Source: a virus
UHGV virus genome: UHGV-0385110
DNA length: 47,876 nt
Direction: 5' to 3' (one strand)
Under the pieces are notes generated by a model. That model searched no databases, was not told where the DNA came from, and saw only the letters and a list, made by a program, of their open reading frames with translations. Positions within the stretch are counted from its first letter, which is position 1; each line of letters opens with the position of its first letter. A program made the position numbers and the translations under genes. Shown in pieces: positions 10,232 through 44,466 of this stretch.

Positions 10232-10261
10232 TTGACAGGGGATGCAAAGCTGACGTAGATT
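10232..10261 (+). promoter_or_regulatory. sigma70-like promoter TTGACA-18-TAGATT; the 12-mer ctGACGTAGATT at 10250..10261 overlaps it
   Basis: TTGACA 10232-10237, TAGATT 10256-10261. Heads the plus-strand HNH/methyltransferase island. Confidence 0.45.
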
Positions 10262-10412
10262 GAAAGCATAAGGTGATTGAGGGTTTGATATATGAACGAG
10301 AATGATGCTGATTTGAGATTTTACATCGACCTGTATGTTGATTGCGGGTTTACCTATGATGAGGCCGAGTTGATGGCGAAAAAATTACTTGCAATGGTAG
10401 GGGTGACATTCG

Positions 10413-10898
10413 ATGAAGATAACTGATTGGTCAGATATTTTTTATTATTGCGATGGGGCTATTTACTGGAAGATAAGAACCTCAAACAGAGTGAAAATCG
10501 GAAGCGAGGTGAAGGCGGTAGGAGGTAATGGATATAAGATTGTTGGAATATATGGCGTCAAGTATCTTGTTCATCGCATCATCTGGGAAATGCATAATGG
10601 GAAAATTCCTGACGGAATGCAGATTGATCATATAGACCACAACAAAACAAACAATAAGATAGATAACCTCAGGCTTGTCACTCCAAAAGAGAATAATCAC
10701 AACATGAAGTTCAGGGTAACAAACAAATCAGGTGTTACTGGTGTTTCATGGGATAAACAACATAAAAAATGGGCCTCAAACATAAAAGTTGATGGTGTAA
10801 AGATTCATCTTGGATTGTTTTCTGATTTAAATATGGCCGCTGAAGCAAGGAGAAAGGCGGAAGTTAAATATAATTTTCATGAGAACCATGGTAAATGA
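10413..10898 (+). CDS. HNH homing endonuclease with AP2-like DNA-binding domain
   Basis: 161 aa. ..IDHIDHNKTNNKIDNLRLVTPKENNHN.. HNH motif. C-terminal ..VTGVSWDKQHKKWASNIKVDGVKIHLGLF.. AP2-type domain. Confidence 0.8.
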   Translation: MKITDWSDIFYYCDGAIYWKIRTSNRVKIGSEVKAVGGNGYKIVGIYGVKYLVHRIIWEMHNGKIPDGMQIDHIDHNKTNNKIDNLRLVTPKENNHNMKFRVTNKSGVTGVSWDKQHKKWASNIKVDGVKIHLGLFSDLNMAAEARRKAEVKYNFHENHGK

Positions 10899-11146
10899 TG
10901 ATGGATAACGAAAACCGCTACACCTGTGAGCAGTATCTCGATGCACTGGTAACACTGGAATTATCCGCAAAATTTGCCATGGTCGAGCGTCGCCCGGTAA
11001 ATGGCAGCATCAAAGCGTGCTGGCAGGCTATCAGGCCGCGAGTGACCAATGAACTTAACAGGAAGATTTTCGACGGCGTGAGCCGCCAGGCTATGCCACA
11101 TGGTGCGCTGTGCATGTTGCGCCGACAGCTTGATGAGTGTGTATGA
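10895..11146 (+). CDS. hypothetical protein
   Basis: 83 aa, ATGA overlap with HNH gene, translationally coupled to following gene. Confidence 0.4.
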   Translation: MMMDNENRYTCEQYLDALVTLELSAKFAMVERRPVNGSIKACWQAIRPRVTNELNRKIFDGVSRQAMPHGALCMLRRQLDECV

Positions 11147-11814
11147 TGGTGATCTGGTCGATGTTTGACGGCTCCGGGATTATGGTTAAGCCGTGGGCCG
11201 ATGCAGGGCATGAATGCTACTGCTTTAATTATGATGGTGCGAATCATGGCGGATACGAGTCAATTCGTGTTAAGCACAGCAATATCCACTATATAAATAT
11301 CTGGATTGATGATCTGTTTAATGGCGCCGTGCGGATCATGGGCGTTCCGGCTCCAGGTATCATCTTTGCCTTCCCTGACTGCACCGAATTCGCCGCATCC
11401 GGTGCAAAGCATGGCCATAATGGGGTGGCATCGCTGCATAGCGCCCGCCTTGTTGAGCGAATCGCCGGGAGTTACGGAATTCCCTGGATGGTAGAAAATC
11501 CAGTGGGCAAGATGTCAACACTATGGCGCAAGCCGGATTACTACTTTGACCCGTACGAGTATGGCGGTTACATGGACGGCAGCGAGGAAAGTTTTCACCA
11601 GAAGATGCCAGCTTATGACGGGTACACAAAAAAGACCTGCATTTGGGCTGGCGGAGGGTTTGTAATGCCAGAGAAAAAGCCGGGTCCGATAAATATTGGA
11701 ATGTTCTGGGGATGGAGATGGTTGGGCGGCAAATCTCAGCGCACCAAGCAACTTCGCTCACTAACGCCGCGTGGATTTGCCAGAGCAGTATATGAGGCTA
11801 ATCATGAACGTTGA
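11137..11814 (+). CDS. DNA C5-cytosine methyltransferase-like protein, N-terminal catalytic half only (motifs I, IV, V, VI)
   Basis: 225 aa. SMFDGSGI (FxGxG, motif I). AFPDCTEFAASGA (PC-type motif IV). LHSARLVERIAGSYGIPWMVENPVG (motif V + ENV motif VI). No QRR motif, no target-recognition domain, no motif IX/X. Confidence 0.5.
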   Translation: MCMMVIWSMFDGSGIMVKPWADAGHECYCFNYDGANHGGYESIRVKHSNIHYINIWIDDLFNGAVRIMGVPAPGIIFAFPDCTEFAASGAKHGHNGVASLHSARLVERIAGSYGIPWMVENPVGKMSTLWRKPDYYFDPYEYGGYMDGSEESFHQKMPAYDGYTKKTCIWAGGGFVMPEKKPGPINIGMFWGWRWLGGKSQRTKQLRSLTPRGFARAVYEANHER

Positions 11815-11826
11815 ATTATGAAGAAT

Positions 11827-11852
11827 AAACCCCCTTTCGGGGGTTTTGTTTT
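11827..11852. terminator. bidirectional rho-independent terminator
   Basis: aaaCCCCCtttcGGGGGttttgtttt. Ends the plus-strand island and the minus-strand major tail gene. Confidence 0.6.
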
Positions 11853-12606
11853 ATGCGGTGACGGTGACAACGCACTTGGTCGAGTCAACGTAATCCGGGT
11901 TGGTCGCCGAATCAGTCACGCGGCAGAAGTACGTGCCAGCATCGCCAGTGGAGGCGCTCGCCTTGGTATACGTGGCAGAGGTTGCACCACTAATCGGCGA
12001 CGTGCCTTTGTACCACTGATAAGAGTACGGCTCAACGCCGCCATCTGCGACAACCGGGCCAATCGTCAGAGCTGAGCCGCTAGCAACGCTAAGGGTCGCG
12101 GAGATATCAGTGGTCAGTGCCAGGTCTTCGATACTTGACACGTCAACGGTAGAGCCATCATACGGCTTGAATTCGACCGAGCCAGTGATGATGTCGTTGG
12201 TGCCACCATCATAGCTCAGCGCAGTGATGTTGCAGTAGGCCACGACAACGGTGTTACCAGTGGTCTGGCGAACCCACAGCGACGGCTGACGACGCGCCTT
12301 AACTTCTGTGACAAAATATTTGATGAGGTTATGCACACCGTACTCATCAGCCTTGTCAGCCTTGCGTACTTCGAAGTCGCCGGAAATGGTCAGGTCGGCA
12401 GTCGTTACCAGAGTAGCAACAAAGCCATCACCATCATCGGCCTCGGAGGTGGTGGTACTCGGACTGAAGTCGACACCTTTCGAGGTCATCGGGGCGAAAA
12501 ACTTCCAGTCTTCCTCTGCTGGCACAGCATCCCAGCAGCCATCAGCCAGCTCGATGAGCGACTGGCGACCTGTGATGATGCCGTTATCATTTGCACAAAT
12601 AGCCAT
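11851..12606 (-). CDS. major tail protein with C-terminal Ig-like domain
   Basis: 251 aa. C-terminal ..GGVEPYSYQWYKG..AGTYFCRVTD.. Ig-like signature as on siphovirus major tail proteins. SD GAGGA before ATG at 12606. Confidence 0.7.
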   Translation of the reverse strand: MAICANDNGIITGRQSLIELADGCWDAVPAEEDWKFFAPMTSKGVDFSPSTTTSEADDGDGFVATLVTTADLTISGDFEVRKADKADEYGVHNLIKYFVTEVKARRQPSLWVRQTTGNTVVVAYCNITALSYDGGTNDIITGSVEFKPYDGSTVDVSSIEDLALTTDISATLSVASGSALTIGPVVADGGVEPYSYQWYKGTSPISGATSATYTKASASTGDAGTYFCRVTDSATNPDYVDSTKCVVTVTA

Positions 12607-12651
12607 GTTTAGAATCCTCTGTGTTTAGCCAAACAATCGCATTATATCATG

Positions 12652-12680
12652 TTGACAGGTTTTGATTGGTGGTGTAGATT
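12652..12680 (+). promoter_or_regulatory. canonical sigma70-like promoter TTGACA-17-TAGATT firing into an ORF-less region
   Basis: TTGACA 12652-12657, 17-nt spacer, TAGATT 12675-12680 (ggtgTAGATT motif core). Confidence 0.5.
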
Positions 12681-12922
12681 AAATGGCAGACACAACAGGT
12701 AAGAGCATTAAAGAACTTGCAAAGAGCTTAACGGTCTGCGAAAGCGTTTCCTAGTGGCACAACTGGCAGGTACAACTGAGTGCTCTTTCCGTTGTGGTAA
12801 TGCGGCTATGCGCACGCGGCAAGGTAAAAATAACTCCTTTTGGGTATGCCTGCTGGATTTACCGACCAGCAACATGGAGGCACCATGGCCACAACAATAA
12901 AATGCTGGATAATCGGATGATT

Positions 12923-12947
12923 ACAGGTTCGAATCCTGTCGCTGGAA
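12923..12947 (+). ncRNA. tRNA-like 3-prime fragment (T-arm acagGTTCGAATCctgt plus 7-nt acceptor strand)
   Basis: Canonical T-loop GGTTCGAATCC with 5-bp T-stem, followed by cgctgga + discriminator a. No complete cloverleaf could be folded upstream. Confidence 0.25.
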
Positions 12948-13109
12948 CAACAACTACAAACTAAATGTAGAGGGTAATATGCCATTATTTCCACCAAGCT
13001 CTGATTGGTATAAAAAGCAACGGCTTATGAAGTCAATTAGCCATATAGCAAACCCGCATAAAAGAAAGTCCATGCTAAACACAAAATCACTGTGGATGAA
13101 GGTTAAATA

Positions 13110-13131
13110 GGCCGGTCAGCGGCCTTTTTTA
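13110..13131 (+). terminator. rho-independent terminator for the plus-strand ORF-less transcript
   Basis: GGCCGgtcagCGGCC followed by TTTTTTAT. Confidence 0.45.
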
Positions 13132-13512
13132 TTCACCAAAAACAACCCTCAGCAACAACTCATAAACCGGCCTCTTCTCTGTCGTAAGCGTAGGGCGACC
13201 AAGCGGCGCCTGCAACTGAATCATGCCAATGCAACTATCAACTGGATGTTCTTTGATATATGAGATGACATCAAGCGCTTTTGCTTTTGTCTCCTCGATG
13301 TTGTACTGACCCTGCTGTCCGACAACATAGAGCGAGAAATAATAATCTCCGCCGAGTCCTTTGCTTACGCTCGTGCCGCCATTGGATTGCAGCACCATGA
13401 AGCGCTCTGTACCAACTTCGGTATCGTTCCAGAACTCAAGCTGAGAAGTCCATCCATCATAAAGACCGGCATCACTAAGGTACTGGTCAACAAGCTCAAG
13501 CATATCTCTCAT
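13129..13512 (-). CDS. tail completion / tail terminator protein (putative)
   Basis: 127 aa. Position between connector genes and major tail gene. ATGA overlap with upstream gene. Confidence 0.35.
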   Translation of the reverse strand: MRDMLELVDQYLSDAGLYDGWTSQLEFWNDTEVGTERFMVLQSNGGTSVSKGLGGDYYFSLYVVGQQGQYNIEETKAKALDVISYIKEHPVDSCIGMIQLQAPLGRPTLTTEKRPVYELLLRVVFGE

Positions 13513-13976: not shown

Positions 13977-13979
13977 ACA

Positions 13980-14324
13980 TCACCCCGTTACCAGCGCAAA
14001 ATCAGGCAGGTCACTGCGGTTTAACGTGTTGCCGTAATTCACGACGTTTCTAATCTGGTCAGCTCCTGCTGCCAGCGGGTCAGCACTGGTAATGGTACCA
14101 TGCATGATGAAGTCGCCAACAGACGCATTCTGGTATTCCGTCCAGAATGTATTTTTCTGTGCGATCTCATTGCCAGCAGTGCCGGTGGTCAGATTTTTAT
14201 CGAAGCCATAATCACACATAATGGCCTCTGGCGCGGCAAATGTTGGCTTGCCATACTTATCCTTGCCAGTAAGCCGCCAGATTGTGCATGGCTGCGTATA
14301 AGTCCACCTGGCTATTGCTGACAT
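13980..14324 (-). CDS. head-tail joining / head closure protein (putative)
   Basis: 114 aa, position in connector series. Confidence 0.3.
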   Translation of the reverse strand: MSAIARWTYTQPCTIWRLTGKDKYGKPTFAAPEAIMCDYGFDKNLTTGTAGNEIAQKNTFWTEYQNASVGDFIMHGTITSADPLAAGADQIRNVVNYGNTLNRSDLPDFALVTG

Positions 14325-15100: not shown

Positions 15101-15261
15101 TAATTATTCTCCGAATGATGAACTTCCAGCATCTGTACACCTGAACCAGCGAAAACGCCATGACGATAACGCCGATTGCTATATCCAATTTCGCCGCCTT
15201 ACGTTTTTCAGGACGGAACAGCGCGGGGTGAGTGTTGTTGGTTTAATTTTATCATAAAGTG

Positions 15262-15290
15262 TTGACGTAGATTGAGGGTGCCGCTATAGT
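15262..15290 (+). promoter_or_regulatory. sigma70-like promoter TTGACG-17-TATAGT containing the 12-mer TTGACGTAGATT; second copy gtGACGTAGAAa at 15292..15303
   Basis: TTGACG 15262-15267, TATAGT 15285-15290. Heads the ParB-like operon. Confidence 0.5.
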
Positions 15291-15312
15291 GGTGACGTAG
15301 AAACAACAATAA

Positions 15313-15576
15313 ATGTTAGAGGTGATGAAGATGAAAGGTTTTAAAGGTACGCCGGGACCGTGGTTTTGGCAAGGCGGTGTGTTATGTAACAAGGATTTTA
15401 TTATTGGGGGTCTCGGGCACAACTTCAACAATCAGGCCAACAAGAATCTAATCACAGCTGCGCCGGAACTATTAGAAGCGTTACAGTTAATAATGAACGG
15501 TGATTTCTATATGCCAAAAGAATCTGCTGATGTTGCAAGATTGGCCATCGCCAAAGCAATCGGAGAATCCCAATGA
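15313..15576 (+). CDS. hypothetical protein
   Basis: 87 aa, first gene of the plus-strand operon. Confidence 0.4.
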   Translation: MLEVMKMKGFKGTPGPWFWQGGVLCNKDFIIGGLGHNFNNQANKNLITAAPELLEALQLIMNGDFYMPKESADVARLAIAKAIGESQ

Positions 15577-15696: not shown

Positions 15697-16512
15697 ATGA
15701 CATCTCTCGGAAAAATTTACTCAGACAAAGAAACTCGCGGCGGAATCGTGGTCAATAAAGGTTATCAGGTTCCTGTCGACCAGCTTTATCTTGAGCCGGG
15801 TTACAACATCCGCGAAGCCGATGAGCAGCACGTTGAATACTTCGCGCAGTGCTGGGAATCAGGTCAGCCAATCCCGGCGTTAACTGTTATTCCTGATGCC
15901 GACGGAAAGCGCATCAAGATTCTTGACGGCCAGCATCGTTATCTTGGCGCATTGCGTGCCATTGAGCGCGGCGTACCAATTGCGCGCATTGAGTGCAAAG
16001 ACTTCACCGGCGATGAAGCGGATAAAATCGCCTTCATGGTGTCATCCAGTCAGGGTAAGCAACTCGACCCGCTTGAGCGTGCAAAGGCTTATGTGCGCCT
16101 GAAAGGGTTCGGATGGACGAATGAAGAAATCGCCAAGAAGGTAGGTCGCTCCGTTTCTGATGTGCAAATGCACCTGTCATTAGGTGATGTGCCTGACGCC
16201 ATTAAAGAGCGCATCAACTTAGGGCAGATTAGCTACGCCAACGCCGTTGCAGTCGCACGTGAGCATGGCGATGATGCCGTTAACGTTATTGATGCTGCCG
16301 TTGAGGAAGCTAAAGCGCAGGGCAAGGATAAGGTGACGGCGAAAACACTCAAGGCCAAAAAAGTTAAGCCGATTGACCGCCTGATTCAGCTGCTGAAAGA
16401 AGCAGACCATATGGTTGTCGCTGAGGGCCATGTGGCACAGGAGACAGAAGAATTTTTGCGCCTTCCTTCTTCGGAATTGAATGAAGTGCTGGCGATTCTG
16501 GAGAAGCTGTGA
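15697..16512 (+). CDS. ParB/Srx-like nuclease domain protein with C-terminal HTH
   Basis: Start ATG 15697 with SD GTGAGGAAAAG. ..KILDGQHRYLGAL.. ParB-N signature. C-terminal ..NEEIAKKVGRSVSDVQMHLSL.. HTH. Confidence 0.6.
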   Translation: MTSLGKIYSDKETRGGIVVNKGYQVPVDQLYLEPGYNIREADEQHVEYFAQCWESGQPIPALTVIPDADGKRIKILDGQHRYLGALRAIERGVPIARIECKDFTGDEADKIAFMVSSSQGKQLDPLERAKAYVRLKGFGWTNEEIAKKVGRSVSDVQMHLSLGDVPDAIKERINLGQISYANAVAVAREHGDDAVNVIDAAVEEAKAQGKDKVTAKTLKAKKVKPIDRLIQLLKEADHMVVAEGHVAQETEEFLRLPSSELNEVLAILEKL

Positions 16513-16718
16513 TGAGTACATCACTGCTGTCTTTGCTAAGAACTGGTGAATATAGCATCAGAGAAATGGCAAAAATTTTAGGTATATCAAAACATCGTGT
16601 TTCATGGTTCATTGCGGAACTTGAGCGCCGTAAATGGGTAGAGGTTACAAGGTGCGCGATATGGCTTCACGATGGAACACGATCAAATAAACCAAATAAA
16701 TACAGAGTTAAATTATGA
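16512..16718 (+). CDS. small HTH DNA-binding protein
   Basis: TGATG overlap with ParB-like gene. ..YSIREMAKILGISKHRVSWFIAELERRKWV.. HTH. Confidence 0.5.
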   Translation: MSTSLLSLLRTGEYSIREMAKILGISKHRVSWFIAELERRKWVEVTRCAIWLHDGTRSNKPNKYRVKL

Positions 16719-16888
16719 CAGCAGAACAATTCATAGAGAAAAACCTGCGCGAAAAACTGCCAGGCATCGACAACGCGGCTATAGAAGCAGCAATTACCCA
16801 CTACAGGCGCAACCAGGGTGAAAAGAAAGGCAAGATTTTCGATGAATGCCTGAAGGTTGCAAAACAACACATGGTGAAGGTGAAGTGA
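16715..16888 (+). CDS. hypothetical protein (57 aa)
   Basis: ATGA overlap upstream, TGATG overlap downstream, coupled in operon. Confidence 0.35.
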   Translation: MTAEQFIEKNLREKLPGIDNAAIEAAITHYRRNQGEKKGKIFDECLKVAKQHMVKVK

Positions 16889-17424
16889 TGAAATTAAAAG
16901 TTAGCAAGTCGCTCCTTGAAGGTGCTTTGATATTTCAGGCCAAACATGATGCGCGTTACTACCTGAATGGCATTTGCTTTATGCCTGATGGTCGAGTTGC
17001 CGCTACTGACGGTCATCGCGCCATGATTGCCAGTAAGCATGAAAATAAATTGAAAGATAACGTTATCGTTTCTGTCAGCAAGTCGCCAACTAAGCGTTAT
17101 GCGTATGCGCTACTGGACACCAAAACAGGTATTGTTACTTACCATGACGAGCATGAAATCATGGTAGGCGCAGGTATCTGCTCTGAGATTAATGGCCGAT
17201 TCCCTGACATTGATCGTGTTATCCCAAAGAAGACAGCGGCAACAGAGCAAATCGGCTTTAACGCCAAATATCTTGCAGATGTTGAGAAGCTGGCGAAGTT
17301 GTTTAACCCGAAATTTGAAGCGGTTCGCTTTGAACTTAACGGTAATACCAGCGCCGCTGTCGCAAACATCAGTGCGCCTACTGGCGAGACTGCAAAAGTT
17401 ATCGTTATGCCAATGAGGATTTAG
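16888..17424 (+). CDS. hypothetical protein (178 aa)
   Basis: ATG 16888 (MKLKVSK) with SD GGTGAAGGTGAAG. The track ORF starts earlier at a TTG. Confidence 0.45.
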   Translation: MKLKVSKSLLEGALIFQAKHDARYYLNGICFMPDGRVAATDGHRAMIASKHENKLKDNVIVSVSKSPTKRYAYALLDTKTGIVTYHDEHEIMVGAGICSEINGRFPDIDRVIPKKTAATEQIGFNAKYLADVEKLAKLFNPKFEAVRFELNGNTSAAVANISAPTGETAKVIVMPMRI

Positions 17425-17680: not shown

Positions 17681-17708
17681 AAAGCCCCTTTCGGGGCTTT
17701 TCTTTTAT
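17681..17708. terminator. bidirectional rho-independent terminator
   Basis: aAGCCCCtttcGGGGCTtttctttt. Ends the plus operon and the minus gene 17708..18523. Confidence 0.6.
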
Positions 17709-21644: not shown

Positions 21645-21826
21645 TGCGTGGCTCCACGGTTAGTTTATGCCCGGATTATAACACACCATGAATATGCACC
21701 ACGAAACTGACGCGAGAAGGTAAAGCGGAGAAGCGGTAAAAGCGAAAAGAGTAGCAAAGAATGATATCAGTATGATTGGCATGGCTGCTACCTCCTGAAT
21801 GCAAGGTAACAGCCAATGGTGGAGAT

Positions 21827-22443: not shown

Positions 22444-22630
22444 CTCCTGAGGCTAGTTCATCGCACCACATGCACTTATAGTAAAGATCGGGCCATCGGC
22501 CGCAGCTCACCCATTCGTGATTACATTCTTTCTTTTCCACTATCCACCCCATCTCTCTGCGATTATTGGCCGTGCGTTCACAGTTGGTGACAAACAGCAC
22601 AGTTCCTGATTTATGCTTTACCGCCCACAT
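22427..22630 (-). CDS. small Cys-rich protein (67 aa)
   Basis: CxxC...CxxC-like spacing (..ECNHEWVSCGRW..CMWCDEL..), acidic tail. Confidence 0.3.
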   Translation of the reverse strand: MWAVKHKSGTVLFVTNCERTANNRREMGWIVEKKECNHEWVSCGRWPDLYYKCMWCDELASGDDDDE

Positions 22631-23106
22631 GACTGGCGCGCCCCGGCAAGCAGCTTTTCAAACATCATCCTGTCACGGCTCATTCCAAACGGGATTATTT
22701 CCTGCCAGTAATATTTCCATGCGCCGCCAGGAAGCATTTCACGGTCAACCTGACCAATGCTTGCCAGGTAGCGCATGCGTGCCTTGAGGATGGTGTAGCT
22801 CACGCCAATGGCTGATGATATCTGTTTGCTTTTGCTGCCAGGATGCTCCTCAAGATACTGCTGAATAGCCAAATCAAGCGCAGTATTATCGGGATTGAGG
22901 AAATACTTAAAGCAGCGCCGACCATCACTTATCCCTTCCTCTTTGACAATAAACCCCATTTTTCCCATCTCTACCAGGCAGAGATTTATTCTTACGCGGT
23001 CATCAACTCCAGTCTGCTTGCGAAGCATTGCGTTTGTTGCTCCGGGATGCCTTTCAATAATGCTGATAAGTTGTGTCTTAAAGTCCATGCTTGCGCTCCA
23101 GTGCAT
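22618..23106 (-). CDS. winged-helix DNA-binding protein (tandem wHTH-like), candidate transcription regulator
   Basis: 162 aa. Two repeats resembling MarR/ArsR-type wHTH (..ISIIERHPGATNAMLRKQTGV.. and ..QYLEEHPGSKSKQISSAIGVS..). Confidence 0.4.
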   Translation of the reverse strand: MHWSASMDFKTQLISIIERHPGATNAMLRKQTGVDDRVRINLCLVEMGKMGFIVKEEGISDGRRCFKYFLNPDNTALDLAIQQYLEEHPGSKSKQISSAIGVSYTILKARMRYLASIGQVDREMLPGGAWKYYWQEIIPFGMSRDRMMFEKLLAGARQSCGR

Positions 23107-23889: not shown

Positions 23890-24022
23890 GGGCTGCCTCC
23901 ATAGCAGCCAGGTCAATGCGCTGCTCGATAGATTTAATGATTGACTCTGGAACATTAAGCATTTGCAGAGTCTCCCGGCAATCGCGCTTATGAACCTCTG
24001 TCACCTCCTGCCATTTCTTCAT
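23807..24022 (-). CDS. hypothetical protein (72 aa), first gene of the minus-strand early block
   Basis: ATG 24022 preceded by AAAAGGTGGTG. The longer track ORF start would run into the divergent promoter region. Confidence 0.4.
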   Translation of the reverse strand: MKKWQEVTEVHKRDCRETLQMLNVPESIIKSIEQRIDLAAMEAAHEAEEAQMLSWMDRTLPGILHRGKTSD

Positions 24023-24076
24023 TCCACACCACCTTTTATCATTATGGTACAATCTACAACACAGAGTATTGACTAA

Positions 24077-24088
24077 TTGACGTAGATT
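24077..24088 (+). promoter_or_regulatory. 12-mer TTGACGTAGATT within inverted repeat TTGACG-TAGATT-CGTCAA; reverse-oriented TTGTAGATT at 24050..24058
   Basis: 31 nt upstream of the first plus-strand gene. Minus-strand variant faces the minus early block. Confidence 0.45.
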
Positions 24089-24118
24089 CGTCAAGATGAT
24101 TTTCACAGGAGAGCGACA

Positions 24119-24319
24119 ATGGCGAGACAACGCAAAGAACCACTGGAAGTACTGACTGAGATTATCGCTAAGCGCCAGCCGTTAAGCCTGCGAGATGTCA
24201 GATATTACGCGCACTGCTACGTAGCAATGCGGGAATGGAGCGCTGAAGAAATGTATGCGTTTGTGCGTGGGCACTTCAGCGTGGATGAGAAAAACAAGGT
24301 TACATTGAGGGTGAAGTGA
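24119..24319 (+). CDS. hypothetical protein (66 aa)
   Basis: SD GGAGAG before ATG. Confidence 0.4.
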   Translation: MARQRKEPLEVLTEIIAKRQPLSLRDVRYYAHCYVAMREWSAEEMYAFVRGHFSVDEKNKVTLRVK

Positions 24320-25908: not shown

Positions 25909-25934
25909 AAAGCCCCGTGAGGGGCTTTTTTATT
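25909..25934 (+). terminator. rho-independent terminator
   Basis: aaAGCCCCgtgaGGGGCTtttttatt. Confidence 0.6.
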
Positions 25935-27992: not shown

Positions 27993-28001
27993 ATTATATC
28001 A
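27993..28001 (-). promoter_or_regulatory. extended -10 (TGaTATAAT) of the minus-strand lysis-cassette promoter
   Basis: Reverse complement of 27993..28001 is TGATATAAT. Lies 35 nt upstream of the HNH ATG (SD GAGGAAA). Its -35 region overlaps the plus-strand 12-mer. Confidence 0.45.
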
Positions 28002-28010
28002 TAAAAACAC

Positions 28011-28022
28011 TTGACGTAGATT
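28011..28022 (+). promoter_or_regulatory. 12-mer TTGACGTAGATT; variant GATGTAGTT at 28039..28047
   Basis: 46 nt upstream of 28068 gene. Diverges from the minus-strand lysis promoter. Confidence 0.45.
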
Positions 28023-28067
28023 TAGTCGTAGGCGATGATGTAGTTACACAAACACAGGGGATTCAAG

Positions 28068-29620: not shown

Positions 29621-29648
29621 GAAGCCGCCATCAGGCGGCTTTCTTGTG
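29621..29648 (+). terminator. rho-independent terminator (hairpin overlaps the stop of the convergent head morphogenesis gene)
   Basis: gaAGCCGCCatcaGGCGGCTttcttgtg. Confidence 0.5.
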
Positions 29649-32004: not shown

Positions 32005-32057
32005 TTCGTCACCATAAAAAATCCCATCACATGGATGGGATTATAGCATGGTCATGG

Positions 32058-33110: not shown

Positions 33111-33139
33111 TTGACGTAGATTCTAGCATGGCGTAGATT
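33111..33139 (+). promoter_or_regulatory. sigma70-like promoter TTGACG-17-TAGATT containing the 12-mer; variant GATGTAGTT at 33089..33097
   Basis: TTGACG 33111-33116, TAGATT 33134-33139 (also 33117-33122). Confidence 0.5.
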
Positions 33140-33165: not shown

Positions 33166-33456
33166 ATGAAATGTGTCATTTTTGAGCTTGATGGGGTGCT
33201 GCGTGATGTCGAAGGTAATGCTATTGCTGGCAACGTCGCACTGGCTAAGTCGCTTTACTCTGCCGGTCACGACGTCCTAATCATGAGGGCAAAGCATGCG
33301 TATGAGTGGCTGCATGCTAACGATGTTTTCTATGATGACATCATGGCTTCGCACCAGCAGATTGACGCAGGTAGGGTGGCAATGGCGGTCGTGTCTGATG
33401 ACGTGATTTATGCCGCCATGCGCAATGCGGGGATTCATTGCTGGCTTTACAAATAG
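33166..33456 (+). CDS. hypothetical protein (96 aa) with HAD motif-I-like N-terminus
   Basis: MKCVIFELDGVL resembles the hhhhDxDGTL motif, but with Glu in place of the nucleophile Asp and far too short for a HAD enzyme. Confidence 0.35.
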   Translation: MKCVIFELDGVLRDVEGNAIAGNVALAKSLYSAGHDVLIMRAKHAYEWLHANDVFYDDIMASHQQIDAGRVAMAVVSDDVIYAAMRNAGIHCWLYK

Positions 33457-33478
33457 CCCCCTGATGGGGTCTTTTCTT
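33455..33478. terminator. rho-independent terminator (plus gene; overlaps TerL stop)
   Basis: aGCCCCCtgatGGGGtcttttctt. Confidence 0.5.
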
Positions 33479-38532: not shown

Positions 38533-38640
38533 AATCCAAAATCGCCAGTAAACTGAGCAAGCTCTTCGCCATGCTCATCCACTACATAGCCATCGAATAC
38601 AACGTCACCATTTTCGTCTTGCTGCTTTTTATCTTCCATC
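38530..38640 (-). CDS. small acidic protein (36 aa), first ORF after the early promoter
   Basis: SD AAGAGGTGA before ATG 38640. ATGA overlap with next gene. Confidence 0.25.
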
Positions 38641-38670: not shown

Positions 38671-38698
38671 ACTATACGATGGCGCCAAATCTACGTCA
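38671..38698 (-). promoter_or_regulatory. minus-strand sigma70-like promoter TTGACG-17-TATAGT containing the 12-mer (same architecture as 15262..15290)
   Basis: Reverse complement reads caTTGACGTAGATTtggcgccatcgTATAGTtacc. Confidence 0.5.
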
Positions 38699-38699
38699 A

Positions 38700-39089
38700 T
38701 ATGATGGTGAAAATAAAATTTAGTTAGTAATCACTTACAGTTATAAATTTTGCAAGTTATTGATATTTATATACCACGCTCAACCCATTTAACCCAAGTT
38801 TTTTTTGGATTTAACCATATATAACCGTTTAGATTCATTAACTTACATGATGTTCAACCATTTATCACTTAAACCTTCACCATGAGAGAAAAGTAGAAAA
38901 TCTTTGATGCATTTTTTTTGCTAAAATTTGCGCAAAGCAAAAAATGGGTTGAATTGGATAAATACTACTATCTATTGATAATAATAGTAGTAAATACATA
39001 TACATAGTATGTAAAAACACTTATCTAAACTCTTATCCAACTTTATCCATTTCAACCCGGCATTGGATTATGGGGCAGGAAAAACAATG
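38700..39089. repeat. AT-rich non-coding origin-like region with DnaA-box-like 9-mers, TCAACC(C)ATTT-type iterons and a 9-bp-arm perfect palindrome
   Basis: TTATCTAAA 39021-29, TTATCCAAC 39034-42, TTATCCATT 39044-52, inverted TGGATAAAT 38953-61. TCAACCCATTTAACC 38780-94, TTCAACCATTT 38852-62, TTCAACCCGG 39051-60, inverted GGGTTGAATTGG 38946-57. Palindrome TACTACTAT-n12-ATAGTAGTA 38963-38992. TTTTTTTTGC..GCAAAAAA 38913-38944. Confidence 0.45.
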
Positions 39090-39117
39090 TTGCGCGCTTG
39101 CGTGGTTAATGTATAAT
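39090..39117 (+). promoter_or_regulatory. strong sigma70-like promoter TTGCGC-16-TATAAT (TG immediately upstream of -10)
   Basis: TTGCGC 39090-95, TATAAT 39112-17. Heads the replication block. Confidence 0.5.
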
Positions 39118-39143
39118 TGATTAACAAAAGTGGGAGGGTTGCC

Positions 39144-39410
39144 ATGTTTAAGGTAATAAGCAAAGAAGAAACACAGTCACTAGCATCAAAGCCAAAGGTT
39201 GAATTCTCAACAAAAGGAATGACAGAACAACTTAGAAATCAATTTAAATCAATGTCTTTTGGAGAATCATTCATTTATCCTGTGAGACTTGAAAAACACA
39301 AAAGAACAGTTTCCAGCAGACTAAAGGGAACATGCAATTCTCTTGGATTCATTATAAGAACAAGGACTGTTGATGATGGAATTCTTGTCATTTTTGAAGG
39401 ATACAAATGA
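39144..39410 (+). CDS. hypothetical protein (88 aa)
   Basis: ATG 39144 (MFKVISKEE) preceded by GGGAGGG. The track start is an upstream TTG. Confidence 0.4.
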   Translation: MFKVISKEETQSLASKPKVEFSTKGMTEQLRNQFKSMSFGESFIYPVRLEKHKRTVSSRLKGTCNSLGFIIRTRTVDDGILVIFEGYK

Positions 39411-40897
39411 TGGCAATAAAGACCATTTACGACCTCACCGCCGACATCAAAAAAGACTCATGGTACGACATCACCAAGCCGCCAGGCCTTGCTGGTGAGA
39501 TAGCTGAAGACATCGCCGCTGGTGAGGTGCGAGAACAGCCAAGGTTGCGCGCTGTGGCAGCACTGCATGAGCTGGTAATTGCCAGCAAAGGTAAAATTAA
39601 AACCCCAAGCGGCATGAAAGGAAACTTGCTGACCATCTGCATTGCTGATTCTGCCGGTGGTAAAGACCGTTCTCAAAGTCACTTCAAGATGATCGCCCGC
39701 GATATCGACAAAGGTCAGCACGTTTTTGGCCGCATAGCATCATCAAAAGATATCGGGCGCACACTGATAAACCACGAAGGCGTGGCAACATTTATTATTG
39801 ATGAATGCCATGGTCTTTTTGGCGTGATGTCACAAAAGAATGGCGCCACCTATATGGCAGAGCTTGGCTCTGAAATTCTCTCAATCTATTCAGACCGCCT
39901 GAAAAAATTCTCTGACCTTGATGCCATTAATGCGAAGGAGTTGCTGGAGAAGGAGTTAAAAAAACTGCGCGCAGAAGTTAAGGATAAGGGCATTGTTGAA
40001 ACTGAGTATCGTCGACGTGAAATGCAGCTCGAAAAAGAAATCTTATGGCCTATCCAGAACGGGATAGAAGACCCTATATTTTCAATGATGTGCTTCTCAA
40101 CGCCTGAAAAGCTGGCAAGCATCATCTGCTCTGAAAACATTGGCACCGGCCTTATTGGTCGTGCGATATTCATCAAAGGAAAAGATGGCCGAGCAAGGAA
40201 AGCAAAAAGATTCGGTCACAAGACGCCGCCATCGCTTATCGAGAAGATGAAACAGATAGAGAAATCAGCACCAACCGTGGCGAGGTACGAAGATACAATG
40301 GTTGAGCAACTTGCCGAATCTCTTGATGATCGTTTTGAGGAGTTGCGGAATGATGTTGCGCTAGGGGCTGTAATATCACGTTCATTTGAGCAGGTTGAAA
40401 AGGTTGCAACAGCTCTTTCTGCTGGTAATAAAGGAGTCATTACAGAATCCATGCTCATGTGGGCTTTTTGCTTTGTATGCGAAAGCCTTACTGACGTGAT
40501 GAGCATGCTTAAAGTGAATGAGAGCCAGGAGGAACTTGGTACTATGGCGCGATGGAACGAGATTAAAAACCGCATTGAAAACGTGCTATCTGGTAGAACA
40601 CGCGATGATTCAATGCCTCAGTCAAGCATTATTCAGCGCGTAGTTAAAACCAAGTCGCTAAAAGGACTGGCAGAAGCTATTGCTCGTACCAATGGAGAGG
40701 ATTTTAATTTCGGCGCAAAAACACTTATCACGCCAGTAATGCAGGCATTAATGGAGTCAAGAGCTATTGATGCTGTCGGTTGCGGTTACTGGATTAACGA
40801 CGCGAGCAAATTTGAGTCGACAAAAATGAGCATTAAATTCTCTCAGATTGTTGAGGGTATCGGCATGAATATGGCGGCGCAGAGAGGTTGGAGATGA
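39407..40897 (+). CDS. hypothetical replication-associated protein (496 aa) with DExH-like motif
   Basis: ..TFIIDECHGLFG.. resembles helicase motif II. No canonical Walker A seen. Sits between the origin-like region and primase/helicase. Confidence 0.3.
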   Translation: MMAIKTIYDLTADIKKDSWYDITKPPGLAGEIAEDIAAGEVREQPRLRAVAALHELVIASKGKIKTPSGMKGNLLTICIADSAGGKDRSQSHFKMIARDIDKGQHVFGRIASSKDIGRTLINHEGVATFIIDECHGLFGVMSQKNGATYMAELGSEILSIYSDRLKKFSDLDAINAKELLEKELKKLRAEVKDKGIVETEYRRREMQLEKEILWPIQNGIEDPIFSMMCFSTPEKLASIICSENIGTGLIGRAIFIKGKDGRARKAKRFGHKTPPSLIEKMKQIEKSAPTVARYEDTMVEQLAESLDDRFEELRNDVALGAVISRSFEQVEKVATALSAGNKGVITESMLMWAFCFVCESLTDVMSMLKVNESQEELGTMARWNEIKNRIENVLSGRTRDDSMPQSSIIQRVVKTKSLKGLAEAIARTNGEDFNFGAKTLITPVMQALMESRAIDAVGCGYWINDASKFESTKMSIKFSQIVEGIGMNMAAQRGWR

Positions 40898-41109
40898 AAA
40901 ATAAGTGGATTGAATGTAGTGAAAAATTACCAGAGGAAAATACAAAAGTAATTTTTTATCCAAAAGATAATGAGCCACTACATGGAGTTTATCTTCAAGG
41001 ACACTGGTTTCAGGATGTATCTTGGTGCAGCATAGACTCTGATGGAGTTCTTGATAACATGGTAACAATTGGTGTTACTCACTGGATGCCAGTTCCAGAA
41101 AAACCATAA
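40894..41109 (+). CDS. DUF551-like small protein (72 aa)
   Basis: ..KWIECSEKLPEEN...VTHWMPVPEKP. ATG 40894 with SD GAGAGG. Confidence 0.5.
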   Translation: MKNKWIECSEKLPEENTKVIFYPKDNEPLHGVYLQGHWFQDVSWCSIDSDGVLDNMVTIGVTHWMPVPEKP

Positions 41110-41112
41110 ACA

Positions 41113-41143
41113 AAAACCCTCCATCAGGAGGGTTTGTTTTTTA
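41113..41143. terminator. bidirectional rho-independent terminator
   Basis: aaAACCCTCCatcaGGAGGGTTtgtttttt. The primase stop lies in the loop. Confidence 0.55.
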
Positions 41144-42017
41144 GTGCTTCAAATAGTTCTTCTGGTTTATACAGCCTTTTTCTGATGGCACTGCTGTAAC
41201 GGATATCCTGACCGTCATCAGTAATCAGCATCGGTAGACCTGCATTCTCGGCGGCGCATATCTCGTCGAAATTATTATTAATGATACAGCGTAGTTTAGC
41301 TCGCTGCTCATTGCTCACATTGCGCACAACTTCCCACATATTCTCAGGAGACCAGCAACACCAGACATGAGCACCGGTAAGCCGGTGTGCTCTCCAGGCA
41401 TCGAAGTAATCCGCAACCAGGTATGTCCATTCCGTCTTATCGCCGATGGGTGTCACCGCGCCGCGCGTAAGTCTTCCACGAGTGTATTCGTGGCTGAAAC
41501 CCGCGCGAAATGACACACTTTCATCGTCAGCAATGAATGCCACATTGCATGGCGTCATTGTTCCAGCCATATAGAGCGGTATCGCCACCAGTTCACCAGT
41601 TTTGCCGGTTATGGTGTCGCCTCCTGCTTTTTCCATGATGGCCGCCACTTCTTCCTCTGTCAGGTAGTCAGAAGCATGGTTGACCTTCGGAAGTTGCTTT
41701 CTAATCGTCTCAAGTTTTTCGCGTGGGTGCATGTTTAGAAATCCGGCCAGTGCCTCCATTGACTCCGGAAACGTCATTCCTGACAGCTTCATTAGCCATG
41801 TGATGCCGCTGCCGTTTCCGCACTGGTTGCAGATGGCGCCGCCGTCACCTTTGTAGTCAAGATGGTCATCAAATCTGAACCGGTCATTGCCGCCACAGCT
41901 CGGACACGGCTGATGTTTACCATTGAAAATTCTCATGTCGACATTGACTATCGACATGATGGCAGCCTGCCAGTTTCCTACCATTAAAGGCTCTATATCC
42001 TTCCAGTCGTATCGCAT
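41124..42017 (-). CDS. DNA primase (zinc-ribbon + TOPRIM-like)
   Basis: 297 aa. ..CPSCGGNDRFRFDD...CNQCGNGSG.. zinc-binding. Acidic TOPRIM-like ..FIADDESVSF.. and ..LITDDGQD.. Confidence 0.55.
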   Translation of the reverse strand: MRYDWKDIEPLMVGNWQAAIMSIVNVDMRIFNGKHQPCPSCGGNDRFRFDDHLDYKGDGGAICNQCGNGSGITWLMKLSGMTFPESMEALAGFLNMHPREKLETIRKQLPKVNHASDYLTEEEVAAIMEKAGGDTITGKTGELVAIPLYMAGTMTPCNVAFIADDESVSFRAGFSHEYTRGRLTRGAVTPIGDKTEWTYLVADYFDAWRAHRLTGAHVWCCWSPENMWEVVRNVSNEQRAKLRCIINNNFDEICAAENAGLPMLITDDGQDIRYSSAIRKRLYKPEELFEALKNKPS

Positions 42018-42034
42018 AATTTAACCTTGATTAT

Positions 42035-42069
42035 TGCCGTAGATTCAGTCTACTATTGTGACGTAGATT
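42035..42069 (+). promoter_or_regulatory. tandem motif copies TTGCCGTAGATT (42035-46) and gtGACGTAGATT (42058-69) upstream of helicase
   Basis: Two plus-oriented copies in the primase/helicase divergent intergenic region. Confidence 0.45.
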
Positions 42070-42091
42070 GAGCAACACAAAGGTGGATGAA

Positions 42092-44026
42092 GTGCAAAAA
42101 ATTGATGCAATGATTGCTGAGCTGGATATGGATAAGCTGCGGGCCAGCATCCATACCGGGGAAATTGAACCGCGCCCCTATCAGTGGCTGGTATATGAAA
42201 AGACAGCGGAGGTTATCCGCAAGTTTGGTAAGCAGCCAAAGCCAAGTTATGTTACCGCGTCAGTTGGCGCCGGTAAGACCATCATGATAGCCATGATTGC
42301 CCGTCGTTTCCAGGATATGGGGTGGGAGGGTCTTGTCATCGCGCGACAAGGCGAAATTATTGAGCAGGATGCTGAGGAGCTTTGGAATCTGAGCGTGAAA
42401 AACTCTTTGTTTAGCGCTTCACTTGGGCGTAAGGCTTATGCCTATCCGCTTATCGCGGGAACAGAGGGCACAATAATAAATGGCCTTTTTGATAAGACGG
42501 CAGAAGACGGCACAGTGACAAAATCTTTGCTTTCGGATTTTACCCCTCGCTACATCCTTGTCGACGAATGTCACCAGGTTAACTGGCAGGACATAATATC
42601 AGAGCAACCAGAGACGCAGTACGGTGTCATCATGAATGAACTTAACCGGCGCTGTAAAGCGAAGTATGGGCATGAGGTCATTGTCATTGGCTACACCGGC
42701 AGCCCATTTCGCGGCGTTGAGTCGATCAAAGGGGCTTACTGGAAACACGAAATCGTCAACATCAGCACGAAATACCTTGTCGATCTTGGTTTTCTTGTTC
42801 CTACCATCTTTGGTGGACAGGATATCGAAGACCTGCAATACGATCTGCATGAGTTTGCCAGTAGTGACGTTGACGGCGTGCAGGACTTCACTGATAGCCA
42901 GCTAAAAGAGATGCAGGAAGAAATCCTCAAGCAGGGTACATTGACGCAAAAAATAATGCTAAAAGTCATGGAACTTACGCGCGACAGGCTCGGTGTACTC
43001 ATTACCTGCGCCGGTAAAAAACATTGCAAGGAGGCTGCAAAATACTTACCAGAAGGCAGTTATTCCATTGTTACCGAGGATATGGGGCAGAAAGCCAGAC
43101 GGAAAGCGCTGAAAGATGCGGCTACAGGGAGAAAAAAATACACGCTGCAAATCGGCTGCCTCACTACTGGCGTTAATATTCCATATTGGGATACTTCTGT
43201 CATCCTGAGAAAAATTATGTCCCTGACGCTTCTGACGCAGTTACTTGGCAGACCAATGCGCCTTTTAAAGCCTGAGCAGATTTCCGCAGGTCTGGTGAAA
43301 GAAAATCATCTTTGTCTTGATTTCACCGGAACCATGTTCGAGCTTGGCGGTCTGTACGAAGACCCTATTCTTGAGGAAGCAGAAGCGCAGCGCGCCAAGC
43401 GCAGCGGAGAGCAGGTGCCATGCCCTAAATGCCAGACGATGAACAGCCCATATGCACGGCGTTGCATCGGTAAAGATGCAACATCGCCAGACGGACGATG
43501 CGAAGAGTTTTTCAGCTTCATTCGCTGTGGTTTCGACAAGCACGGCATCCGTATTTTCGATGATGGCTGTGGAACAAAGAACGACCCGACAGCTCGTTAT
43601 TGCCGTCAATGCGATCACGTTTTGCGCGACCCTAACGCGGCGCTTAATGAGCGCGCTTATACCGATAAGGAATGGACAGATGTGCAAGATTTTAAAGTCG
43701 AGTTGACCAAAGACGCTGAGGGGGTTCTTTATCGTTACCTGGTGGTAAAAGCTGATGGAAAGACCGGCTGGGCAAATGAGGTGTTTTATCCGTTCGGAGG
43801 CAAGCCAAAGCACCTGCGTGACATGTTTAAAATGAAGGCTCTGCTTCCACACCTGGAAGATAAATCAATGATGAAGAAAATGATGGACTGCCATGATGCG
43901 AAGACTTTCATGCATTACGCTGGGTTAATCCGGGCACCTAAGCGCATTACGCACCGTTTTAACGATAAAGGCCGCGATATCATCCACCGCAAGGATTTCA
44001 TAGGAGAACAAATTGAAGCAGCTTGA
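42092..44026 (+). CDS. SF2 (DEAD/DEAH-type) DNA helicase with C-terminal Cys-cluster domain
   Basis: Start uncertain: the track uses TTG 42068, GTG 42092 follows SD AGGTGGA. Walker A ..ASVGAGKT... Motif II ..LVDECHQV... C-terminal ..CPKCQTMNSPYARRC...CRQCDHV.. Confidence 0.65.
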   Translation: MQKIDAMIAELDMDKLRASIHTGEIEPRPYQWLVYEKTAEVIRKFGKQPKPSYVTASVGAGKTIMIAMIARRFQDMGWEGLVIARQGEIIEQDAEELWNLSVKNSLFSASLGRKAYAYPLIAGTEGTIINGLFDKTAEDGTVTKSLLSDFTPRYILVDECHQVNWQDIISEQPETQYGVIMNELNRRCKAKYGHEVIVIGYTGSPFRGVESIKGAYWKHEIVNISTKYLVDLGFLVPTIFGGQDIEDLQYDLHEFASSDVDGVQDFTDSQLKEMQEEILKQGTLTQKIMLKVMELTRDRLGVLITCAGKKHCKEAAKYLPEGSYSIVTEDMGQKARRKALKDAATGRKKYTLQIGCLTTGVNIPYWDTSVILRKIMSLTLLTQLLGRPMRLLKPEQISAGLVKENHLCLDFTGTMFELGGLYEDPILEEAEAQRAKRSGEQVPCPKCQTMNSPYARRCIGKDATSPDGRCEEFFSFIRCGFDKHGIRIFDDGCGTKNDPTARYCRQCDHVLRDPNAALNERAYTDKEWTDVQDFKVELTKDAEGVLYRYLVVKADGKTGWANEVFYPFGGKPKHLRDMFKMKALLPHLEDKSMMKKMMDCHDAKTFMHYAGLIRAPKRITHRFNDKGRDIIHRKDFIGEQIEAA

Positions 44027-44429
44027 TAGTGGAATATGGGTATTTGATAGCGGTTATCGCGGAGAGTGTCCGCTGGAATGCACTGACCAGATGGCCTATG
44101 GTCTGTGGATGCAATACCGTTTTCCTGATGCTCTGTGGTTTCATGTTCCTAACGAGACAGGAACAAAGAGCGGCCCTCAATTCGTCGAAAAACGTCGCAA
44201 AATGGGCGTCAGGAGCGGTATAAGCGACAATGTGATACTAACTCACGGCATTAATCATAAATGCGGACTGATTGAGCTGAAGAGGCGTGACAAGACAAAA
44301 TCAAAAGTATCGCCATCGCAGATTGAGGTTCTGGAGTGCGCCATTGCAGAGGGTCACTTTGGCGCTATTGCTTATGGCCTTGAGGAGCTAAAAAGAGCGA
44401 CGTTATTCTATTTTGGGCTTGATGAATGA
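44013..44429 (+). CDS. VRR-NUC domain nuclease (PD-(D/E)xK)
   Basis: 138 aa. ..FHVPNETG...GVRSGISDNVILTHG...GLIELKR.. matches VRR-NUC core. TTG start with SD AGGAG. Confidence 0.5.
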   Translation: MKQLDSGIWVFDSGYRGECPLECTDQMAYGLWMQYRFPDALWFHVPNETGTKSGPQFVEKRRKMGVRSGISDNVILTHGINHKCGLIELKRRDKTKSKVSPSQIEVLECAIAEGHFGAIAYGLEELKRATLFYFGLDE

Positions 44430-44447
44430 CGTGGTTTGATGTAGATT
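44419..44447 (+). promoter_or_regulatory. sigma70-like promoter TTGATG-17-TAGATT (motif variant gaTGTAGATT)
   Basis: TTGATG 44419-24, TAGATT 44442-47. Upstream of the 44467 gene and the recombination genes. Confidence 0.4.
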
Positions 44448-44466
44448 GATTTAACAATAAAAAGAG

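Follow-up and report, generated by a model that had tools for sequence, protein, structure and literature searches.

The early promoters of the lytic coliphages T4, T5 (P25, P26, N25) and T7 (A1-A3) are strong sigma-70 promoters of the host polymerase that recur many times per genome, with near-consensus hexamers, a 17-bp spacer and a phage-specific extended consensus. In phage lambda (OR/OL) and plasmid RK2 (KorA over the -10, KorB at 12 sites), one short site recurs at many promoters, where it covers the -35, the -10 or the +1. Here we describe a 12-mer, TTGACGTAGATT, with refined core TGRYGTAGATT, which recurs in UHGV virus genome UHGV-0385110, a stretch of 47,876 nucleotides referred to below as the window. 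The 12-mer is probably the signature of early and replication-gene promoters used by host sigma-70 in this phage's clade, and at the same time an operator-like site for a second factor.

With relatives of 45-49 kb, the window is roughly as long as a complete genome of its group, and it comes from a Klebsiella siphovirus with approximately 90% identity to Aeromonas phage pIS4-A, Vibrio phage pYD38-A and many Klebsiella phages. Its closest phages belong to Roufvirus, a genus without family assignment, which the BASEL collection paper presents as the sister of the Skatevirus group of Salmonella and E. coli phages. The window phage belongs to this genus and is not a classified T1-like phage; the earlier note on this DNA had called it T1-like. 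True T1-like genomes such as TLS have only a 42%-identical helicase gene in common with the window, and they lack the motif. Many Roufvirus- and Skatevirus-like phages are being isolated with a view to therapy against Klebsiella, Salmonella and E. coli, and nothing has been published on the organization of their transcription. In the literature, searched by motif sequence, genus names and phage names, we found no description of the element, nor any start-site or RNA-seq data for the clade. The gene map used here was made from open reading frames (ORFs) and tblastn of the annotated relative PP454752.1, and 140 related loci were fetched using the ParB-like gene and the helicase as anchors.

A recurrent intergenic 12-mer heads about ten gene units

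Exact copies of TTGACGTAGATT are present at five places in the window (15262, 24077, 28011 and 33111 on the plus strand; 38688-38699 on the minus strand), and copies with one mismatch at four more (10250, 42034, 42058 and 44436, plus strand). With up to two mismatches allowed, 14 copies were counted against 3.35 +/- 1.8 expected, a number reached in 0 of 100 shuffles; the core GTAGATT occurs 18 times (3.9 expected), and the refined core TGRYGTAGATT 10 times (0.09 expected). All nine copies with at most one mismatch are intergenic, while intergenic DNA makes up 7.7% of the window (binomial p ~1e-10), as are 12 of the 18 copies of GTAGATT (p 5e-10). Every copy with at most one mismatch is co-oriented with the next gene, the motif ending 22-48 nt before its start codon. 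Enrichment together with intergenic restriction rules out chance occurrence. The recurrent 12-mer reported in the earlier note is real, and the comparison of intergenic with coding DNA which that note proposed came out in its favor. The positions it gave were right to within a few bases, with 44445 now read as 44436-44447, 42035 as 42034, 33131 as 33128-33139 and, among the minus-strand copies, 38687-98 as 38688-38699 and the TTGTAGATT copy as 24051-24059. The predicted promoters and promoter regions that carry the motif are the following:

10232-10261, plus strand: promoter of the HNH endonuclease/methyltransferase cassette, TTGACA-N18-TAGATT; first gene at 10292
12652-12680, plus strand: promoter of the variable tRNA/small-RNA slot, TTGACA-N17-TAGATT; terminator at 13109-13125
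15262-15303, plus strand: promoter for the ParB/KorB-like operon with first gene at 15313, its exact 12-mer (15262-15273) being in the -35 register
24051-24062, minus strand: copy GTGTTGTAGATT at the head of a leftward unit of small genes; first gene at 24022
24069-24094, plus strand: promoter/operator region of a rightward unit, TTGACT-AA-TTGACGTAGATT-CGTCAA; first gene at 24119
28011-28044, plus strand: promoter of the unit from 28068, exact 12-mer at 28011-28022 in the -35 register
33111-33139, plus strand: promoter of the single-gene unit 33166-33456, two copies 17 bp apart; terminator at 33456-33470
38671-38699, minus strand: promoter of a long leftward unit, exact 12-mer at 38699-38688 in the -35 register, N17, TATAGT at 38676-38671
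42034-42069, plus strand: promoter region of the helicase unit, copies TTGCCGTAGATT and GTGACGTAGATT 24 bp apart; start at 42092
44419-44447, plus strand: internal promoter of the exonuclease, annealing protein and SSB genes, TTGATG-N17-TAGATT; start at 44476

Except for the internal copy at 44436, the plus-strand copies lie in short divergent intergenic regions of 74-212 bp and face a minus-strand operon, the long exception being the tRNA/small-RNA slot with 522 bp. The units are closed by strong, often bidirectional terminators: 11827-11846 after the 10292 unit (a small ORF, the HNH endonuclease and the methyltransferase), 17681-17700 after the ParB operon, 25909-25928 after the rightward unit from 24119, 29621-29642 after the unit from 28068, and also 41114-41135. 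Two motif-driven units run on, the one from 24059 (minus strand) toward the head genes and the one from 38688 (minus strand) to the large terminase gene; the latter begins at 38639 and comprises thirteen small genes, as far as the terminase gene at 33477. The motif was said to head every nonstructural unit. This holds for about ten units and not for two others: the 39117-41109 unit, with a 496-aa primase/helicase-like gene, has TTGCGC-N16-TATAAT and no motif, and the primase gene (41124-42017, minus strand) has only a TAGACT variant, TTGCTC-N17-TAGACT. The helicase promoter region at 42034-42069 overlaps this minus-strand TTGCTC-N17-TAGACT, a candidate promoter for the primase gene.

Motif promoters have the geometry of host sigma-70 promoters

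In the reading proposed here, TTGACG would be read as a -35 and TAGATT as a -10, each copy being used in one of two registers. A copy in the -35 register would work with a separate -10 (TATAGT or TAGATT) 17 bp downstream, a copy in the -10 register with a separate TTGnnn 17-18 bp upstream, and two copies 17 bp apart would make a complete promoter by themselves. The fusion of a -35-like TTGACG with a -10-like TAGATT, pointed out in the earlier note, is borne out by partner hexamers 17 bp away, and all of those it named are present (TTGACA at 10232 and 12652, TTGATG at 44419, TATAGT at 15285 and, on the minus strand, at 38671-76, TAGATT at 33134). Across the related loci, copies with at most one mismatch fall into 69 distinct sequence-context families. 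TAnnnT stands exactly 17 nt after TTGACG in 23 of the 69, against 1-3 at each of the other spacings from 14 to 19, and TTGnnn exactly 17 nt before TAGATT in 19 (18 nt in 3). An unbiased scan for TTGACN-N17-TAnnnT returned 41 families, compared with 22 at N16 and 8 at N18; the -10 hexamer among these 41 is TAGATT in 18 and TATAGT in 6.

The individual sites follow the same plan. The copies at 10250-10261 (CTGACGTAGATT), 12669-12680 (GTGGTGTAGATT) and 44436-44447 (TTGATGTAGATT) are in the -10 register, the promoters of the first two matching sigma-70 at 10 of 12 positions. The equivalent of the 10250 site is annotated in PP454752.1 as a 'host promoter', and the promoter equivalent to 12652 drives tRNA-Arg/Met genes (sometimes Ser, Thr, Ile) in relatives. 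Matches at 10 of 12 positions were likewise found at the ParB-operon promoter, with TATAGT at 15285-15290 (N17), and at 38671-38699. The 33111 site combines TTGACGTAGATT in the -35 register with ATGGCGTAGATT in the -10 register, giving TTGACG-17-TAGATT with TAGATT at 33134. At 28011, GATGAT stands at N17 (9 of 12), there is a degenerate second copy GATGATGTAGT(T), and the equivalent site in relatives reads ...cgatgaTGTAGATA. In a generic sigma-70 consensus scan of the window, the best matches (10 of 12 positions) were motif sites. The predicted -10 lies approximately 23-31 nt from the start codon, about the same distance in both registers. The motif copies are intergenic, co-oriented with the gene and followed by a short leader, and their promoters have the 16-18 bp spacing of sigma-70 promoters, except at 24077, 24059 (minus strand) and 42058. 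On these grounds the motif sites are predicted with high confidence to be promoters for the host RNA polymerase.

The 12-mer is conserved as one unit

The two halves of the motif are linked even where only one of them would be used. Among the 41 unbiased families, TGRYG precedes the -10 in 17 of 18 with a TAGATT -10 and in 1 of 23 with another -10 (p = 2e-9), and a TAGATT-like sequence follows the -35 in 18 of 25 with TTGACG and in 0 of 16 with TTGAC[ACT] (p = 2.6e-6). In 7 of 18 families in the -35 register, the second half reads TAGATA or TGGATT; of the T(-7) and A(-11) required by sigma-70, one is missing in these forms, and upstream halves such as GTGGTG are unusable as a -35. Orthologous promoters were aligned from anchors outside the promoter. 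In 44 distinct orthologues of the ParB-operon promoter, the 12 motif columns, TATAGT and TGACGTAGA are conserved at 90% or more, and the other 11 spacer positions at 50-90%. In the 10250 family (n=25), TTGACA and CTGACGTAGATT reach 90% or more, including the TGACG half, and the remaining spacer varies. The motif of the 38671-38699 promoter (n=23 orthologues) is conserved at 90% or more, as is every column of the 33111 promoter (n=9).

The motif also recurs where neither hexamer register applies. A third copy, GTGACGTAGAAA at 15292-15303, covers the predicted transcription start of the ParB operon, and TGAYGTAGAAAC copies, ending in TAGAAA, lie on or after the start site of the ParB-operon promoter and of the helicase promoter of the Skatevirus-like group; the TGACGTAGAAA form at the transcription start is a motif conserved where sigma-70 cannot use it. 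The same site is found over the -35, the -10 or the +1 and is conserved beyond the need of the polymerase, as in operators that overlap promoters. Because the unused half is conserved and copies with a dead -10 lie at or after the start site, a second factor would appear to read the whole 11- to 12-mer, and the earlier note's idea of an operator is plausible to this extent. An RNA-level element was rejected, the majority of copies being upstream of the predicted start site, and no Rfam or tRNA match was found in the window. The 5' leader of the ParB operon, TGACGTAGAAACAACAATAAATGTTAGAGGTGATG (15292-15325), is itself conserved at 90% or more in 44 distinct relatives, even between groups whose ParB is approximately 80% identical, which suggests a regulatory leader, acting in transcription or translation.

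Two units of small genes diverge from each other here, one starting at 24022 (leftward, including the tandem winged-helix gene) and the other at 24119 (rightward). The core of the promoter region between them (24060-24100) is nearly invariant in 19 distinct relatives, as is AGTATTGACTAATTGACGTAGATTNGTCAAGATGA at the rightward promoter; in these relatives the minus-strand copy at 24051-24062 is kept as TG(T/G)TGTAGATT; this copy has no -35-like hexamer 16-18 bp upstream. In 24069-24094, the exact 12-mer lies at 24077-24088, there are inverted TTGACN arms, and the palindrome TTGACG-TAGATT-CGTCAA noticed before is present at 24077-24094. The base 3' of this 12-mer is C or A across relatives, and the inverted repeat is kept either way: the C form (CGTCAA) pairs with the TTGACG of the 12-mer, the A form (AGTCAA; ATTAGTCAA) with the upstream TTGACTAAT.

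The motif is specific to the Roufvirus/Skatevirus-like clade

The motif was found in every Roufvirus-like locus and in the group with approximately 80% ParB identity (Vi II-E1, seszw, swi2 and others), and in variant form (TTGACGTAGATA, GTGACGTAGATT) in the group with 68% ParB identity. It was not found in loci with a 42-44%-identical ParB, nor in T1-like relatives of the helicase. The composite pattern TTGACGTAGAWT-N6-TGRTGTAGATT retrieved 30 of 2.9 million viral contigs, all of this clade. Absence from related genomes, which would have spoken against the element, was looked for and not found in the Roufvirus/Skatevirus-like loci, and the 'phage-specific' promoter code proposed earlier is specific to a clade, with none in outgroups.

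Promoter boundaries were compared between relatives. Among pairs related downstream of the motif, 28.5% share no 9-mer upstream of it, compared with 0.3-10% at control offsets, and in the tRNA slot the breakpoint lies approximately 10 nt after the -10. These sequence comparisons, which have noisy controls and a signal in one direction only, are suggestive of promoters tending to lie at mosaic junctions.

Outgroup loci carry repeats of other kinds. In the T1-like outgroups L130, L132 (49,902 bp) and L138, the 8-mer CTGATTGG/CCAATCAG occurs 11-13 times against approximately 0.6 expected in about 20 kb, and may be a recurrent signal of their own. L077, a motif-less locus with a distant ParB, has 8 copies of the E. 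coli Chi sequence GCTGGTGG within 14 kb, where 0.45 would be expected.

Structural and lysis operons begin with extended -10 promoters

The structural operons do not carry the motif, as had been stated, and have extended -10 promoters instead. Six structural or lysis operons begin with TGnTAWAAT and have no recognizable -35; the pattern TGNTAWAAT occurs 10 times in the window against 4.0 expected. The predicted promoters are the following:

10223-10231, minus strand: extended -10 TGGTATAAT of the tail operon, back to back with the motif promoter; conserved at 90% or more in relatives
12641-12649, minus strand: extended -10 TGATATAAT of the major tail gene, TGnTAWAAT
15246-15254, minus strand: extended -10 TGATAAAAT of the head-tail connector operon; TGCTAAAAT in the Skatevirus-like group
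21675-21683, minus strand: extended -10 TGTTATAAT of the capsid genes, TGnTAWAAT
27993-28001, minus strand: extended -10 TGATATAAT of the lysis cassette, TGnTAWAAT
32040-32048, minus strand: extended -10 TGCTATAAT upstream of the portal gene, TGnTAWAAT

The presence of two architecturally distinct promoter classes in one genome suggests a temporal switch acting on -35 recognition. The possibility that the motif is an activator site for the divergent extended -10 promoters was rejected: the distance from the divergent -10 hexamer to the 12-mer varies from 10 to 21 nt, the motif centre lies at roughly -29 to -41, and the promoters at 21675 and 32040 have no motif nearby.

Proposed function and alternative explanations

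We propose that each motif promoter opens a cassette of promoter, genes and terminator, usually back to back with an extended -10 structural or lysis operon, and that the TGRYGTAGATT 11- to 12-mer would also be read whole by a second factor, most likely a phage-encoded DNA-binding protein. Placed over the -35, -10 or +1, this factor would repress all early units together, and the extended -10 late promoters would stay active. A protein bound at any of these three positions should exclude the polymerase, which makes coordinated repression of the early units the simplest model; this second-reader and repressor step is an inference. A narrower form, which we put forward tentatively as one possibility, is that the asymmetric 11- to 12-mer is the operator of a clade-specific global regulator, either the ParB/KorB-like protein in a nonpalindromic mode or an unannotated small early protein. 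If so, it would constitute a one-site, one-protein temporal switch of approximately ten promoters in a virulent siphovirus that relies wholly on the host polymerase: the regulator would recognize a sequence composed of promoter hexamers and silence every early and replication cassette together, leaving late expression to the extended -10 promoters, which have no motif.

Several observations weigh against the combination of a promoter signature with an operator-like site. The promoter types at 24077, 24059 (minus strand) and 42058 have no -35-like hexamer at 16-18 bp, and because no usable -35 is available there, their use by sigma-70 would be weak or dependent on help. The promoter families are not fully independent phylogenetically, and concerted evolution could inflate the linkage statistics. 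The start-site copy of the ParB operon lies in the fully conserved leader, where conservation could act on RNA. Both candidate binders have a point against them: the tandem winged-helix gene is dispensable in the reduced phage described below, and the ParB/KorB-like family binds palindromes, which the motif is not. The labels 'early' and 'late' follow from gene content alone.

It is unlikely, in our judgement, that the sites are plain sigma-70 promoters with no second reader, their unit-like appearance coming from recombination-homogenized paralogous copies or from selected tandem start sites. The geometry fits this explanation, as do the promoter boundaries at mosaic junctions, with the excess of unrelated upstream sequence and the tRNA-slot breakpoint described above, and short homologies could be used by the phage's own exonuclease and annealing protein. 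Against it, the unused half is conserved at 90% or more in the 44 distinct ParB-operon orthologues while the adjoining spacer drifts; the -35-register families without A2 or T6 have no working -10 in their second half, GTGGTG-type upstream halves offer no usable -35, and dead -10 copies persist after the start site. A very remote alternative is a host polymerase respecified by a phage protein, through appropriation like that by T4 MotA/AsiA or a sigma-like factor, with TGRYGTAGATT as a -35-independent element of the -10 region. The three conserved promoter types that have the 11-mer and no -35 would fit, and so would the invariant G at -13 and the TG at -17/-16, which are not known to be read by sigma-70; most early ORFs are of unknown function. 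The TG lies at -17/-16, with R and Y at -15/-14, so the motif is no extended -10 element, which has TG at -15/-14, as the structural-operon promoters do. Its sequence is also unlike a MotA box, (a/t)(a/t)TGCTT(t/c)A with its centre near -30, and Pfam and PHROG scans of 50 ORFs (20 against Pfam), of limited sensitivity for very divergent proteins, returned no sigma factor, sigma-appropriation or other RNA-polymerase-binding family, MotA, AsiA or phage RNA polymerase. Annotated relatives likewise have no phage RNA polymerase gene, which speaks against promoters of a single-subunit phage enzyme, conserved sequences of about 20 bp that end at +1, and the modified sigma suggested in the earlier note found no candidate in these scans. 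Moreover, the majority of copies have a canonical partner at 17 bp, the optimum of sigma-70, and an early promoter must fire before any phage protein is made.

As for the second factor itself, we consider it improbable that the motif is the operator of the ParB/KorB-like protein (15697-16512) acting as a global early repressor, as KorB does on RK2. The protein matches Spo0J, ParB, Noc and KorB structures and the Pfam families HTH_ParB and KorB, and is a genuine member of the family; its gene is in every motif-bearing phage, a universality that is partly by construction because the loci were anchored on ParB. Its own promoter has the motif at the -35 and the +1, a layout like autoregulation. 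Salmonella phage seszw_280L (MZ375349.1, L212), a viable mutant of 36,975 bp, keeps this ParB-like 'DNA binding protein' gene and nine TGRYGTAGATT sites, and the gene is in every reduced seszw genome listed, although the genome-reduction study left likely regulatory elements untargeted (PMC9825161). ParB, KorB and Noc are known to bind palindromes of 13-16 bp, however, whereas the 12-mer is asymmetric and strictly directional. No palindrome with arms of at least 7 was found in the intergenic DNA of the window except terminators, and no palindromic parS-like site for this protein was found in the window. Phages with a 42-44%-identical ParB have no motif. Among known host transcription factors (FNR, CRP, IHF, DnaA, MatP and others), we know of none whose consensus sequence fits.

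The tandem winged-helix protein (162 aa, 22618-23106) and the 69-aa helix-turn-helix (HTH) protein (16509-16718), both named as readers in the earlier note, are quite doubtful candidates. The former has a predicted tandem winged-helix fold (predicted local distance difference test score (pLDDT) 77), and two winged-helix domains per chain could read an asymmetric site; it belongs to a motif-driven early unit and was found in 36 of 39 and 27 of 33 related loci. Fold searches returned generic tandem winged-helix matches, and its homologue is deleted in seszw_280L compared with wild-type Seszw_1 (L044), in the genome-reduction work of PMC9825161. The protein is therefore rejected as an essential activator and would be at most a nonessential modulator; of the earlier proposal, the fold stands. 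The 69-aa HTH protein is in 1 of 39 and 2 of 33 related loci, all motif-bearing, and was rejected as a conserved binder on this distribution; it is a rare accessory gene.

A 192-aa protein (16846-17424) has weak Pfam matches to beta-clamp domains of DNA polymerase III, whereas its best PHROG family is 'RusA-like Holliday junction resolvase'. Its public annotations conflict, and this clamp-like gene is deleted in seszw_280L, together with three small genes.

Noncoding regions near the motif promoters

Two longer noncoding regions adjoin motif promoters. One of them, 522 bp long (12607-13128), separates the major tail gene from the structural gene that comes next. It contains a promoter of its own and a plus-strand terminator, and the unit from 12681 headed by this promoter contains no gene in the window. 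No tRNA (ARAGORN) or known RNA (Rfam) was detected in it, although tRNA remnants like GGTTCGAATCC... can be seen. The slot is occupied in most relatives by 1-4 tRNA genes (Arg-tct, Met-cat, Ser, Thr, Ile), and in the relative L068 ARAGORN reports a tmRNA-like gene overlapping tRNA-Met. The slot is a patchwork of segments common to different relatives, and in the window it may contain an uncharacterized RNA of approximately 440 nt or decayed tRNAs.

The AT-rich 417 bp at 38700-39116, between the divergent units from 38639 (minus strand) and 39117 (plus strand), contain inverted copies of GGGTTGAATTGGATAAA at 38946-38962 and 39042-39058 that are 94% complementary, a further AAATGGGTTGA/TCAACCCATTT pair and TTATCCA motifs resembling the DnaA box. 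The primase/helicase-like genes lie beside this region, a candidate origin of replication.

Comparison with known systems

The analysis offers a testable transcription map for these phages, with about ten cassettes running from composite promoter to terminator and six extended -10 operons, and a hypothesis for temporal control without a phage polymerase. The composite promoter is a compact, portable module for engineering them. The linkage of a -35 with an adjacent -10 hexamer is an unusual architecture, which could reveal new operator logic or unrecognized contacts between polymerase and DNA.

In their hexamers, spacer, repetition and phage-specific extension, the motif promoters resemble the early promoters of T4, T5 and T7. 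Unlike in those, the extension here is a second promoter hexamer (TAGATT after the -35, TGRYG before the -10), and the same 12-mer is used in the -35, -10 and +1 registers; we know of no such composite among them. With the lambda and RK2 operators the motif shares its placement over promoters and a conservation that exceeds the needs of the polymerase, and the phage has a KorB/ParB-family gene. The lambda and RK2 operators are palindromes bound by dimers, whereas the motif is asymmetric and always co-oriented with transcription.

The T4 middle promoters likewise have a phage-specific element in or adjoining the -35 at a fixed distance from a TAnnnT -10. The MotA box (TGCTTtA) differs in sequence from the motif, which keeps a canonical TTGACG, and the scans gave no homologue of MotA or AsiA. 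Two classes of promoter, -35-dependent early and extended -10 late, are also known from Thermus phage P23-45 and from the AsiA-resistant extended -10 promoters of T4; here the classes are known from their architecture, and early or late from gene content. The PeSL (promoter-early stem-loop) cassettes of T4-type phages and 'morons' are likewise small cassettes with a conserved early promoter and a strong terminator, set among structural operons, and the mosaic junctions at the promoter add to the likeness, suggestively and in one direction, with noisy controls. The PeSL cassettes belong to another phage lineage and have another promoter sequence. Against this background, the element is best described as a clade-specific sigma-70 promoter code in which -35 and -10 hexamers appear to be fused into one selected unit that is used in three registers.

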